DNA of 64,000 nucleotides from the NCBI RefSeq assembly GCF_016903815.1, contig NZ_CP069973.1; one strand, given 5' to 3'. Position 1 is the stretch's first letter; each line of letters opens with the position of its first letter. Under the pieces are notes generated by a model. It saw only the letters and a program-made list of their open reading frames with translations. It was not told where the DNA came from and did no database searches. The translations under genes were made by a program, and so were the position numbers. Below, piece by piece: positions 32,783 through 37,308 of the stretch. The stretch comes from Escherichia coli (lineage in GTDB: Bacteria; Pseudomonadota; Gammaproteobacteria; Enterobacterales; Enterobacteriaceae).

Positions 32783-34729
32783 ATGAATATTTTAGGTTTT
32801 TTCCAGCGACTCGGTAGGGCGTTACAGCTCCCTATCGCGGTGCTGCCGGTGGCGGCGCTGTTGCTGCGATTCGGTCAGCCAGATTTACTTAACGTTGCGT
32901 TTATTGCCCAGGCGGGCGGTGCGATTTTTGATAACCTCGCATTAATCTTCGCCATCGGCGTGGCATCCAGCTGGTCGAAAGACAGCGCAGGTGCGGCGGC
33001 ACTGGCGGGTGCGGTAGGTTACTTTGTGTTAACCAAAGCGATGGTGACCATCAACCCGGAAATTAACATGGGTGTACTGGCGGGTATCATTACCGGTCTG
33101 GTCGGTGGTGCAGCCTATAACCGTTGGTCCGATATTAAACTGCCGGACTTCCTGAGCTTCTTCGGCGGCAAACGCTTTGTGCCGATCGCCACCGGCTTCT
33201 TCTGTCTGGTGCTGGCGGCCATTTTTGGTTACGTCTGGCCGCCGGTACAGCACGCTATCCATGCAGGCGGCGAGTGGATCGTTTCTGCGGGCGCGCTGGG
33301 TTCCGGTATCTTTGGTTTCATCAACCGTCTGCTGATCCCAACCGGTCTGCATCAGGTGCTGAACACCATCGCCTGGTTCCAGATTGGTGAATTCACCAAC
33401 GCGGCGGGAACGGTTTTCCACGGTGATATCAACCGCTTCTATGCCGGTGACGGCACCGCGGGGATGTTCATGTCCGGCTTCTTCCCGATTATGATGTTCG
33501 GTCTGCCAGGTGCGGCGCTGGCGATGTACTTCGCAGCACCGAAAGAGCGTCGTCCGATGGTTGGCGGGATGCTGCTTTCTGTTGCTGTTACTGCGTTCCT
33601 GACCGGTGTGACTGAGCCGCTGGAATTCCTGTTCATGTTCCTTGCGCCGCTGCTGTACCTCCTGCACGCACTGCTGACCGGTATCAGCCTGTTTGTGGCA
33701 ACGCTGCTGGGTATCCACGCGGGCTTCTCCTTCTCTGCGGGGGCTATCGACTACGCGTTGATGTATAACCTGCCGGCCGCCAGCCAGAACGTCTGGATGC
33801 TGCTGGTGATGGGTGTTGTCTTCTTCGCTATCTACTTCGTGGTGTTCAGTTTGGTTATCCGCATGTTCAACCTGAAAACGCCGGGTCGTGAAGATAAAGA
33901 AGATGAGATCGTTACTGAAGAAGCCAACAGCAACACTGAAGAAGGCCTCAATCAACTGGCGACCAACTATATTGCTGCGGTTGGCGGCACTGACAACCTG
34001 AAAGCAATTGACGCCTGTATTACTCGTCTGCGCCTGACCGTGGTTGACTCGGCTCGCGTCAACGATGCGATGTGTAAACGGCTGGGTGCTTCTGGGGTAG
34101 TGAAACTGAACAAACAGACTATTCAGGTGATTGTTGGCGCGAAAGCGGAATCCATTGGCGATGCAATGAAGAAAGTTGTTGCCCGTGGTCCGGTAGCCGC
34201 TGCGTCAGCTGAAACTGCGCCTGCAACTGCCGCGCCTGTAGCAAAACCGCAGGCTATACCAAACGCGGTGTCTGTCGCGGAGCTGGTATCGCCGATTACC
34301 GGTGATGTTGTGGCACTGGATCAGGTTCCTGACGAAGCATTCGCCAGCAAAGCGGTGGGTGACGGTGTGGCGGTGAAACCGACAGATAAAATCGTCGTAT
34401 CACCAGCCGCAGGGACAATCGTGAAAATCTTCAACACCAACCACGCGTTCTGTCTGGAAACCGAAAAAGGCGCGGAGATCGTCGTCCATATGGGTATCGA
34501 CACCGTAGCGCTGGAAGGTAAAGGCTTTAAACGTCTGGTGGAAGAGGGCGCGCAAGTAAGCGCAGGGCAACCGATTCTGGAAATGGATCTGGATTACCTG
34601 AACGCTAACGCCCGTTCGATGATTAGCCCGGTGGTTTGCAGCAATATCGACGATTTCAGCGGCTTGATCATTAAAGCTCAGGGCCATGTTGTGGCGGGTC
34701 AAACACCGCTGTATGAAATCAAAAAGTAA
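32783..34729 (+). CDS. nagE: PTS N-acetylglucosamine-specific EIICBA component NagE (648 aa)
   Basis: N-terminal polytopic EIIC, EIIB Cys motif (CITRLR) and C-terminal EIIA domain. Confidence 0.92.
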   Translation: MNILGFFQRLGRALQLPIAVLPVAALLLRFGQPDLLNVAFIAQAGGAIFDNLALIFAIGVASSWSKDSAGAAALAGAVGYFVLTKAMVTINPEINMGVLAGIITGLVGGAAYNRWSDIKLPDFLSFFGGKRFVPIATGFFCLVLAAIFGYVWPPVQHAIHAGGEWIVSAGALGSGIFGFINRLLIPTGLHQVLNTIAWFQIGEFTNAAGTVFHGDINRFYAGDGTAGMFMSGFFPIMMFGLPGAALAMYFAAPKERRPMVGGMLLSVAVTAFLTGVTEPLEFLFMFLAPLLYLLHALLTGISLFVATLLGIHAGFSFSAGAIDYALMYNLPAASQNVWMLLVMGVVFFAIYFVVFSLVIRMFNLKTPGREDKEDEIVTEEANSNTEEGLNQLATNYIAAVGGTDNLKAIDACITRLRLTVVDSARVNDAMCKRLGASGVVKLNKQTIQVIVGAKAESIGDAMKKVVARGPVAAASAETAPATAAPVAKPQAIPNAVSVAELVSPITGDVVALDQVPDEAFASKAVGDGVAVKPTDKIVVSPAAGTIVKIFNTNHAFCLETEKGAEIVVHMGIDTVALEGKGFKRLVEEGAQVSAGQPILEMDLDYLNANARSMISPVVCSNIDDFSGLIIKAQGHVVAGQTPLYEIKK

Positions 34730-34777: not shown

Positions 34778-34809
34778 AAGCGGTGGAGATCTTCTCTGCC
34801 GCTTTTTTT
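34778..34809 (+). terminator. Probable native nagE terminator (aagcgg...ccgcttttttt), preceded by a REP-like palindrome at 34744..34767
   Basis: 6-bp stem plus T7 run; the palindrome gatgcgacacggcagcgtcgcatc sits immediately upstream. Confidence 0.45.
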
Positions 34810-35518
34810 GTGCACAGAAAACCCCCAGCTAGGCTGGGGGTTCCGGAAAGCTTTCAGCTTTAAGCCAGTTATTAAAACCCCTTTTGATTTGTTAAAACAC
34901 CTTGCGGTCTGGCAACTGCAAGTGTCAAACAAGAAATCAAAAGGGGGTCCCAATGGGGAACGAAAAGAGCTTAGCGCACACCCGATGGAACTGTAAATAT
35001 CACATAGTTTTTGCGCCAAAATACCGAAGACAGGTGTTCTACAGAGAGAAGCGTAGAGCAATAGGCAGTATTTTGAGAAAGCTGTGTGAGTGGAAAAGTG
35101 TACGGATTCTGGAAGCTGAATGCTGTGCAGATCATATCCATATGCTTGTGGAGATCCCGCCCAAAATGAGCGTATCCGGCTTTATGGGATATCTGAAAGG
35201 GAAAAGCAGTCTGATGCTTTACGAGCAGTTTGGTGATTTGAAATTCAAATACAGGAACAGGGAGTTCTGGTGCAGAGGGTACTACGTCGATACGGTGGGT
35301 AAGAACACGGCGAAGATACAGGATTACATAAAGCACCAGCTTGAAGAGGATAAAATGGGAGAGCAGTTATCGATTCCCTATCCGGGCAGCCCGTTTACGG
35401 GCCGTAAGTAACGAAGTTGGATGCAAATGTCAGATCGTGTGCGCCTGTTAGGGCGCGGCTGGTAAGAGAGCCTTATAGGCGCATTTGAAAAACCTCCGGC
35501 TATGCCGGAGGATATTTA
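34808..35518 (+). mobile_element. IS200-family insertion sequence (IS200/IS605 family); boundaries approximate (about ±15 bp)
   Basis: Contains an IS200-type tnpA; left-end hairpin aaaaccccc-agctaggct-gggggtt (34817..34842) and right-end hairpin cctccggc-tatg-ccggagg (35493..35511); length about 710 bp fits IS200; flanked by the nagE terminator and the glnS promoter. Confidence 0.8.
34953..35411 (+). CDS. tnpA: IS200 transposase TnpA (HuH Y1 transposase, 152 aa from MGNEKSLAHTRWNCKYHIVF)
   Basis: HuH motif (HIHMLVEIPP) and catalytic-Tyr region (GYYVDTVG); near-identical to IS200 TnpA as recalled; the track ORF starts 17 codons upstream. Confidence 0.88.
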   Translation: MGNEKSLAHTRWNCKYHIVFAPKYRRQVFYREKRRAIGSILRKLCEWKSVRILEAECCADHIHMLVEIPPKMSVSGFMGYLKGKSSLMLYEQFGDLKFKYRNREFWCRGYYVDTVGKNTAKIQDYIKHQLEEDKMGEQLSIPYPGSPFTGRK

Positions 35519-35559
35519 TTTTTCATCAATCATCCCCATAATCTCAGTGAGATTTTCGA

Positions 35560-35643
35560 TTTTCACTAACTAACAGTTGTCAGCCTGTCCCGCTTATAAG
35601 ATCATACGCCGTTATACGTTGTTTACGCTTTGAGGAATCCACG
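35560..35643 (+). promoter_or_regulatory. glnS promoter and 5' leader, retained downstream of the IS200 right end
   Basis: Sequence ttgtcagcctgtcccgcttataagatcat offers candidate -35/-10 elements about 60 bp upstream of the glnS ATG; inference. Confidence 0.4.
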
Positions 35644-37308
35644 ATGAGTGAGGCAGAAGCCCGCCCGACTAACTTTATTCGTCAGATCATCGATGAAGAT
35701 CTGGCCAGTGGTAAGCACACCACAGTACACACCCGTTTCCCGCCGGAGCCGAATGGCTATCTGCATATTGGCCATGCGAAATCTATCTGCCTGAACTTCG
35801 GGATCGCCCAGGACTATAAAGGCCAGTGCAACCTGCGTTTCGACGACACTAACCCGGTAAAAGAAGATATCGAGTATGTTGAGTCGATCAAAAACGACGT
35901 AGAGTGGTTAGGTTTTCACTGGTCTGGTAACGTCCGTTACTCCTCCGATTATTTTGATCAGCTCCACGCCTATGCGATCGAACTGATCAATAAAGGCCTG
36001 GCGTACGTTGATGAACTGACACCGGAACAGATCCGCGAATACCGCGGCACCCTGACGCAGCCGGGTAAAAACAGCCCGTACCGCGACCGCAGCGTTGAAG
36101 AGAACCTGGCGCTGTTCGAAAAAATGCGTACCGGTGGTTTTGAAGAAGGTAAAGCCTGCCTGCGTGCGAAAATCGACATGGCGTCGCCATTTATCGTAAT
36201 GCGCGATCCGGTGCTGTACCGCATTAAATTTGCTGAACACCACCAGACTGGCAACAAGTGGTGCATCTACCCGATGTACGACTTCACCCATTGCATCAGC
36301 GATGCGCTGGAAGGTATTACGCACTCTCTGTGTACGCTTGAGTTCCAGGACAACCGTCGCCTGTACGACTGGGTGCTGGACAACATCACCATTCCTGTTC
36401 ACCCGCGCCAGTACGAATTCTCGCGCCTGAATCTGGAATACACTGTGATGTCCAAGCGTAAGCTGAACCTGCTGGTGACCGACAAGCACGTTGAAGGCTG
36501 GGATGACCCGCGTATGCCGACCATTTCCGGTCTGCGTCGTCGTGGTTACACTGCGGCTTCTATTCGTGAGTTCTGCAAACGCATCGGTGTGACCAAGCAG
36601 GACAACACCATTGAGATGGCGTCACTGGAATCCTGCATCCGTGAAGATCTCAACGAAAATGCGCCGCGCGCAATGGCGGTTATCGATCCGGTGAAACTGG
36701 TTATCGAAAACTACCATGGCGAAGGCGAAATGGTCACCATGCCGAACCATCCGAACAAACCGGAAATGGGGAGCCGTCAGGTGCCGTTTAGCGGTGAGAT
36801 TTGGATCGATCGCGCCGATTTCCGCGAAGAAGCTAACAAGCAGTACAAACGTCTGGTGCTGGGTAAAGAAGTGCGTCTGCGTAATGCTTACGTCATTAAG
36901 GCTGAACGCGTGGAGAAAGATGCCGAAGGCAATATCACCACCATCTTCTGTACTTATGACGCCGACACCTTAAGCAAAGATCCGGCAGATGGTCGTAAAG
37001 TCAAAGGTGTTATTCACTGGGTGAGCGCGGCACATGCGCTGCCGGTTGAAATCCGCCTGTACGATCGTCTGTTCAGCGTGCCGAACCCAGGTGCTGCGGA
37101 TGATTTCCTGTCGGTGATTAACCCGGAATCGCTGGTGATCAAACAGGGCTTTGCTGAACCGTCTCTGAAAGACGCGGTTGCGGGTAAAGCATTCCAGTTT
37201 GAACGTGAAGGTTATTTCTGCCTCGACAGCCGCCATTCCACTGCCGAAAAACCGGTATTTAACCGCACCGTAGGGCTGCGTGATACCTGGGCGAAAGTAG
37301 GCGAGTAG
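35644..37308 (+). CDS. glnS: Glutamine--tRNA ligase GlnS (554 aa)
   Basis: HIGH (HIGHAKS) and KMSKS-like (VMSKR) class I motifs. Confidence 0.93.

Follow-up and report, generated by a model that had tools for sequence, protein, structure and literature searches.

Insertion sequences of the IS200/IS605 family insert into single-stranded DNA, preferentially the lagging-strand template, and their left end is placed 3′ of a tetra- or pentanucleotide specific to each element (PMC5027513). The closest described system to the locus considered here is IS200 of Salmonella. Its 5′ end holds two structures that act on the transposase gene tnpA: the palindrome at nt 12–34 is a bidirectional transcription terminator that shields tnpA from external transcription, and a stem-loop in the 5′UTR, published at nt 69–138, sequesters the tnpA Shine–Dalgarno sequence (PMC4513863). 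The antisense RNA art200 is expressed by the IS1541 element of Yersinia (PMC4513863), and in Salmonella, invF and more than 70 genes are under the control of the processed 5′ end of tnpA (PMC5435999). Terminator-like sequences are enriched just upstream of IS200/IS605 elements in general (preprint 10.1101/2025.07.22.666184); on terminator targeting by IS200/IS1541, a literature search returned only this general enrichment, and the mechanistic IS608 papers are silent.

The window analysed here is a stretch of 64,000 nucleotides of Escherichia coli DNA (contig NZ_CP069973.1). It includes an IS200-type element between two co-oriented genes, both present in the ORF list and in the RefSeq annotation: the upstream nagE, for the PTS GlcNAc transporter IIABC (32783–34729, + strand), and glnS, for glutamine–tRNA ligase (35644–37308, + strand). 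With a probability of ∼0.9, the element is a complete, apparently functional and normally silent copy of IS200C that goes back to a single insertion in an ancestor of the ST405 clade (E. coli phylogroup D) and is probably neutral in cis.

Extent, coding content and control region of the element

The nagE–glnS spacer measures 914 bp in the window and 202 bp in K-12 MG1655. In the alignment with K-12, the extra DNA is one unbroken block that begins within the T-run past the nagE terminator hairpin, and the net gain in the spacer is 712 bp both against K-12 and against EFF60, an E. coli genome with an empty site. The initial annotation had described K-12 as lacking an insertion here and had proposed the spacer comparison as the means of defining the junctions; the alignment bears out the former and delivers the latter. 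The empty site reads GCCGC-T9-CATC in K-12 and EFF60, and the filled site in the window reads GCCGC-T7-[IS]-T3-CATC, where comparison with the empty site and with other copies places the last three T's of the split nagE T-run at 35521–35523 (+ strand). The T7 and T3 of the filled site add up to 10 T's against 9 in the empty site, so that the junction is not perfectly reconstructed; homopolymer slippage or a T10 ancestor must be assumed, either of which could account for the excess base. These T's are the only direct repeats flanking the element, and their one-base excess (T7 + T3 against T9) is indistinguishable from homopolymer slippage. Precise excision was considered as the origin of the empty site in EFF60: starting from the present allele, it predicts T10 where T9 is observed, which is not decisive but slightly favours an ancestral, never-occupied site.

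Elements of the IS200 type have neither inverted repeats nor a target duplication, so their ends have to be defined by comparing copies. The reference set was eight independent E. coli copies with unrelated right flanks, neighbouring lacZ/lacY, ydcL, yfeX, a prophage ail/lom gene, uhpT, plaP, fdnI and araE. All eight start with GTGCACAGAAAACCCCC and end with GGAGGATATTTATT; seven are 711 bp long, and the frameshifted araE copy has 712 bp. The same ends recur in ∼50 IS1541 copies of Yersinia pestis and in copies of Edwardsiella, Dickeya and Vibrio. By comparison with other copies, and by its PGAP name, the window holds a complete IS200C insertion sequence of 711 bp at 34810–35520 (+ strand), starting GTGCACAG and ending GGATATTTATT. 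The size of about 710 bp first given for it stands, but the coordinates (34808–35518) were displaced by 2 bp. RefSeq labels the identical locus ‘IS200/IS605-like element IS200C family transposase’, with the protein WP_000526135.1. The termini, GTGCACAG at the left and ATATTTATT at the right, are not inverted repeats, and both ends have subterminal hairpins. A search with the left-end hairpin, allowing up to 3 mismatches, found no further IS200 copies within the window; for this 23-nt hairpin, 0 matches are expected in shuffled sequence.

The sole long sense ORF of the 711-bp element is tnpA (34953–35411, + strand), intact and identical to WP_000526135.1, which encodes a Y1 HUH transposase of 152 aa followed by a stop; there is no tnpB, and RefSeq marks tnpA only. 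The antisense ORFs of the element were discarded as mechanical listings without family support. TnpA matches the Pfam family Y1_Tnp (PF01797) at E=4.4e-38 over model positions 2–121 of 121, and the NCBIfam equivalog NF033573, transpos_IS200, at 147.7 bits (cutoff 55). It carries the HUH motif as D-H61-I-H63 and a tyrosine helix as QD-Y125-IKH-Q129. Against PDB 2ec2 (E=4e-23), DHIH and Y-x3-Q are aligned; in the alignment with 2ec2 and 2f4f, DHIHMLV falls on DHIHLFV and QDYIKHQ on KKYIEEQ. TnpA also aligns with 2f4f/2f5g, 2a6m (IS608) and 2xm3 (ISDra2), with HUH and Tyr in register. The catalytic Tyr is thus Y125 of QDYIKHQ, which aligns with the solved structures, and not one of the YY pair at 110–111. 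Together with the Rfam match described below and the RefSeq label, these matches confirm that the element at 34810–35520 belongs to the IS200 group of the IS200/IS605 family. The initial annotation had claimed a complete IS200-type element in the nagE–glnS spacer, with HUH and catalytic Tyr motifs in tnpA; both claims hold, the residues being H61/H63 and Y125-x3-Q129, and the ORF is of the IS200 family and the site is empty in K-12-like genomes.

The terminal hairpins that it had also reported lie at 34820–34842 on the left and at 35440–35483 and 35493–35511 on the right. The left-end hairpin is a perfect palindrome (IS200 nt 12–34; inverted repeat of 10+10 nt, 100% complementary) with a predicted fold of −18.7 kcal/mol. 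It is followed by the 5′UTR stem-loop, IS200 nt 70–138, at 34878–34946 (+ strand; inverted repeat, fold −40 kcal/mol, z=−3.7), and the published tnpA transcription start near IS200 nt 40 corresponds to about 34848 in the window. The right end (35440–35520, + strand), delimited by inverted repeats, folds and a terminator scan, consists of the two hairpins and a 9-nt tail, ATATTTATT; in the scan it resembles an intrinsic terminator on both strands. A match to the Rfam family Chlorobi-1 was dismissed as chance (14.7 bits against a gathering score of 50, E=0.72); it reads a hairpin and T-run on the minus strand. Four features would keep tnpA switched off, namely the left-end terminator, weakness of its promoter, the Shine–Dalgarno-sequestering stem-loop and the art200 antisense RNA, and the copy is probably silent.

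The leader of tnpA matches Rfam RF01405, STnc490, in sense orientation at 34820–34943 (+ strand; 146.1 bits, gathering 56, E=1.4e-31, model 1–124 of 124). The Rfam model is tnpA-sense and takes in the left-end terminator (IS nt 12–135); art200, the name to which STnc490 was changed, is antisense and runs from nt 153/154 down to ∼nt 65, so that the orientation and extent in Rfam mismatch the published sRNA. Since the model is sense but art200 is antisense, the match certifies the region and not any transcript. Coordinates transferred from PMC4513863 place a predicted, putatively expressed art200 of ∼90 nt at 34872–34962 (− strand). Its start, given as IS200 nt 153/154 by Ellis et al. 2015 (PMC4513863), falls on 34961/34962, where codon 3 of tnpA ends, in agreement with that description; a −35-like TTTACA lies upstream at 34997–34992 on the − strand, and the predicted region folds with z=−5.1. 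The 5′ 200 nt of IS200C, including the art200 promoter region, are almost identical to those of Yersinia IS1541. The initial annotation had pointed out that the 5′ region of Salmonella IS200 produces regulatory RNA, in agreement with PMC4513863 and PMC5435999, and transcription of a small RNA from the copy at nagE–glnS is plausible judging by its sequence. With ∼20 identical copies per genome, such RNAs are not attributable to this copy.

Terminator tails as the insertion target

The intrinsic terminator of nagE occupies 34778–34809 (+ strand) and was identified by terminator scan and RNA fold as a 12-bp stem-loop (34778–34804) with a T-run (34803–34809). The element had been described as lying after this terminator; the location is right, and it can be refined to the inside of the terminator T-tract, which is the standard target of the element. 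The T-run has 9 T's in the empty site and 7 after insertion, and the stem is the same with and without the IS, folding at −17.5 kcal/mol in the empty site.

The other copies of the element are found in similar positions. From species-representative genomes of other taxa, 116 distinct left flanks were drawn, and the bases next to the junction were compared in 66 enterobacterial flanks. A fold of −10 kcal/mol or better lies within 45 nt in 97% of the 116; random 45-mers reach this value in 27.5% of cases and 45-mers with T-rich endings in 17%. In the enterobacterial set, 56 of the 66 have TT(T/A/G)TT directly before the left end (TTTTT in the window), T occupies position −1 in all 66 and position −2 in 65, and the distance from the last G/C pair of the hairpin to the junction is 6–9 nt in 51. 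The right end of the IS has the same geometry, a hairpin followed by 9 nt ending in TTATT. Each of the eight independent E. coli copies adjoins a hairpin with a TT(T/A/G)TT tail. Seven of them lie 35–55 bp past the stop codon of a co-oriented gene; the eighth is at the lacZ–lacY intergenic hairpin, on the opposite strand, where no gene ends, a hint that sequence and structure attract the IS, and not terminator function. Head-to-tail IS1541 dimers were seen in Yersinia pestis NCTC5923, where the right end ...GGATATTTATT abuts the GTGCCCAG of the next copy; a dimer junction at TTATT indicates that the element's own right end serves as a target.

A mechanism can be proposed in which the IS200 transposase, as a Y1 HUH enzyme, would move one DNA strand (‘peel and paste’) and join the left end to single-stranded DNA, 3′ of a short target peculiar to the element, without target duplication. 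For the IS200/IS1541 subgroup, this target would be TT(T/A/G)TT at 6–9 nt past a GC-rich hairpin, an arrangement that amounts to an intrinsic terminator's tail. Such a target may mimic the right end of the element, with its hairpin and ATATTTATT; this mimicry is the present analysis's own suggestion. The nagE terminator would have supplied a site of precisely this kind on the + strand. The top strand of the IS lies on that strand at K-12 0.706 Mb, in the right replichore, a map position at which the + strand is expected to be the lagging-strand template and which is consistent with lagging-strand insertion. The GC skew of the window (−0.002) is noisy and gives no signal for a replichore, and the K-12 map position was used for the assignment in its place.

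A broader and tentative idea, doubtful as a whole, is that TnpA recognises single-stranded intrinsic terminators as mimics of the right end (GC hairpin, 6–9 nt, TT(T/A/G)TT), and that the ancestor of ST405 went through a burst in which copies landed at the 3′ ends of ∼20 operons, that of nagE among them, as well as at the non-terminator lacZ–lacY hairpin; the copies might then jointly alter termination, polarity or sRNA dosage in this epidemic lineage. If true, the requirement for a hairpin, beyond a T-run, would be a mode of target recognition undescribed for IS608 and ISDra2. Part of the association with terminators could stem from the loss by selection of insertions at other places, and not from a targeting mechanism.

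Distribution and effect on glnS

Among 5,426 complete E. coli genomes, the occupied site (the IS and both flanks together) is present in 93, and the best 30 of these 93 sites are 100% identical over 1,151 bp. When the IS is left out of the query, the 12-kb right flank reaches 99% identity or more in 94 records only, and the next genomes have at most 98.4%; the clade is therefore discrete. It probably consists of the 93 carriers and the empty EFF60, given the matching numbers and overlapping top matches. PEC1020, a clade member at 99.9%, is a carrier. Another carrier, WCHEC96200, belongs to ST405, phylogroup D (PMC5762679), and WCHEC4533 figures in an ST405 comparison; a literature search for a link between IS200 and ST405 returned incidental co-mentions only. 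The survey of E. coli genomes suggested at the outset thus gives 93 of 5,426 complete genomes as occupied, a figure that fits one clade and agrees with the proposal that the insertion marks the lineage of the strain.

EFF60, the closest relative free of the IS, and the window are 99.98% identical over 14.5 kb to the left of the site and 99.67% over 25.5 kb to its right. The mismatches to EFF60 within 20263–60962 are very unevenly spread, with 3 in the 14.5 kb on the left and 71 in the 25.5 kb on the right, and their pattern suggests a recombination patch on the glnS–kdp side, in the lineage of the window or of EFF60.

Of the 5,426 genomes, 2,063 contain near-complete IS200C copies; the median is one place per genome, and no genome has more than 35. 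Genomes of the carrier clade have ∼17–30 places each, which against a median of one indicates a lineage-specific burst of IS200, in an element usually called dormant. In a second genome of the clade, E. coli strain 7/2 (NZ_CP023820.1, 383744–384454), an IS200C copy in the opposite orientation to the lac operon separates lacY from the stop codon of lacZ and adjoins the lacZ–lacY intergenic hairpin with GGTTATT; the terminator-like hairpins on both strands of this copy could be polar on lacY and lacA. Beyond E. coli, the exact 23-nt left-end hairpin, AACCCCCAGCTAGGCTGGGGGTT, also occurs in Bacillota, Peptococcaceae, Mailhella/Desulfovibrio, Oxalobacter, Saccharibacteria, Elusimicrobiaceae and Vibrio (MAGs and genomes). 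It is usually found there 15–220 nt from a contig end and nearly always beside a hairpin and T-run, and the 10 nt preceding it vary by taxon (GTGAAACGAA, GTTAAAAGAA and GTATAGAGAA). These occurrences point to a very wide horizontal spread of an element with this left-end hairpin, whose repeats would break assemblies.

Downstream of the insertion, a consensus scan finds a single sigma-70-like promoter on the + strand, that of glnS (35577–35605). It reads TTGTCA-17-GATCAT, its −10 contains a Dam site, it is identical in K-12, intact, and lies 57 bp downstream of the IS. The distance from the IS end to the glnS ATG (35644) is 123 nt, close to the roughly 125 bp of the initial annotation. In agreement with this promoter, PMC11741368 attributes a dependence of glnS expression on the Dam site to Plumbridge & Soll 1987; a literature search found no direct description of a mapped glnS promoter beside nagE. 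Just upstream of the promoter, at 35544–35570, the window differs from K-12 by about ten substitutions in ∼28 bp (CTCAGTGAGATTTTCGATTTTCAC versus CCTTGTTAGATTATCAATTTTAAAA). The same patch is present in EFF60, where the site is empty, and is thus a lineage allele unrelated to the IS.

A different insertion occupies this spacer in ST131 (B2), where an islet of nine genes and ∼9 kb lies between nagE and glnS. Its left junction is directly past the same nagE T-run, and homology resumes ∼28 bp upstream of the −35. In the ST131 strain MB1159 (NZ_CP174273.1), the islet encodes a D-threonate kinase, a D-threonate dehydrogenase, a DeoR regulator, an alcohol dehydrogenase, a DHDPS-like protein, TerC, an exo-alpha-sialidase, a YhcH-family protein and an SLC13 permease. 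The B2 islet probably explains the ∼1,050 genomes that cover less than 80% of the empty-site query. An islet at the same spot also implies that glnS tolerates a far more drastic upstream change than the one in the window.

The initial annotation had suggested that the element could insulate glnS from nagE read-through or alter its promoter context; the sequence evidence points instead to an insertion that is probably neutral in cis for glnS. The nagE terminator retains its stem and seven U's, the IS brings its own left-end terminator and a right-end hairpin with T-run, and the glnS promoter is untouched, as are 91 bp of native upstream sequence, measured from a probable transcription start near 35612. 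It is very unlikely that a cis effect on glnS aided the fixation of the insertion, be it through insulation from nagE read-through, through displacement of an upstream element by 711 bp or through outward transcription from the IS. The IS is fixed in 93 of ∼94 genomes of the clade, two more terminator-like hairpins now stand between nagE and glnS, and the U-tract of the nagE terminator has gone from 9 to 7, all of which would suit such an effect; a neutral marker, however, is also expected to fix in a clonal lineage. The core promoter and the 57 bp upstream of its −35 are native and identical to EFF60, the consensus scan detects no outward sigma-70-like promoter in the right end of the IS, and the hairpin and T-run at that end should halt tnpA transcripts. 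Strains of B2, moreover, function with a wholly different upstream context that comes nearer to the promoter.

The remaining rival explanations concern what the copy itself can do. Were it an immobile fossil, intact in sequence but with transposition lost and a mere scar, the identical junction in all carriers would fit, as would the description of IS200 as essentially dormant with transposition seldom observed. This is unlikely: the ORF is intact with conserved catalytic residues, both ends are complete and the same as in other copies, and the clade has ∼20 copies that are 100% identical at different loci, from which recent IS200C activity in the clade follows. It is also improbable that the element is chiefly a trans-acting sRNA gene, acting by the processed 5′ tnpA leader and/or art200, with this copy adding to a regulatory dose in ST405. 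The direct target that is known, invF of SPI-1, belongs to Salmonella, the literature on IS200 RNAs yielded no E. coli target, and among ∼20 identical copies no individual role is identifiable for the one at nagE–glnS. The features that speak for such a role are the full-length match to Rfam STnc490, the near-identity of the 5′ 200 nt, art200 promoter region included, to the RNA-expressing IS1541, the >70 Salmonella genes under IS200 RNAs, and the ∼17–30 copies in clade genomes against a species median of 1, a copy number that a past burst of transposition explains equally well. A complete, apparently functional and normally silent insertion sequence remains the preferred reading.

Significance and comparison with known systems

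Public knowledge or annotation already covers the element and its family, how it is regulated, its affinity for terminators and the nagE–glnS insertion, the last being annotated in 93 RefSeq genomes. As an ordinary catalogued element, it matters little for biology in general. The nagE::IS200C::glnS junction is a clean presence/absence marker of the ST405 clade: 93 of ∼94 close relatives have it and none of the other ∼5,300 genomes does, and it could be of use in PCR typing. The locus also illustrates terminator tails as a safe harbour for insertion sequences: by inserting at such a tail, an IS can come to lie beside an essential gene without harm. The nagE–glnS spacer is a recurrent entry point, for IS200 in the window and for a 9-kb islet in B2 strains.

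A preference for the site immediately downstream of an intrinsic-terminator stem-loop is shared by bacterial group IIC introns, a placement that minimises damage to the host and avoids read-through transcription. Group IIC introns are ribozyme retroelements with a reverse transcriptase, unrelated to IS200 in mechanism and sequence. Homologous transposases are those of IS608 from Helicobacter pylori (PDB 2a6m, E=4e-19) and ISDra2 from Deinococcus radiodurans (PDB 2xm3, E=2e-16), the two elements that serve as mechanistic models for the family. Both elements have subterminal hairpins and insert their left end 3′ to a short specific single-stranded sequence on the lagging-strand template (PMC5027513), but in contrast with the IS200C of the window they carry tnpB, and their targets are TTAC and TTGAT, respectively, in place of a T-run. 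For neither IS608 nor ISDra2 does the literature found describe that the target must adjoin a hairpin.

IS1541 of Yersinia pestis and Y. pseudotuberculosis has ∼87.5% nucleotide identity over the whole length, an identical left-end hairpin, the same right end, the same target of a hairpin and TT(T/A/G)TT, and the same orientation to the upstream hairpin. The first 10 nt differ (GTGCCCAGAA in IS1541, GTGCACAGAA in the IS200C of the window), and in Y. pestis IS1541 has a much higher copy number as well as head-to-tail dimers. The IS200 of Salmonella enterica and E. coli IS200C are the same element, of ∼710 bp with a single tnpA for a 152-aa Y1 HUH transposase. The palindrome, the Shine–Dalgarno-sequestering stem-loop and the art200 start are at matching positions, and inverted repeats are absent from both; apart from T's, no direct repeat flanks the copy in the window. 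There is no structural difference from Salmonella IS200, for which 707 bp are quoted against the 711 bp placed here, and the sole novelty relative to known IS200 and IS200C elements is the insertion site.
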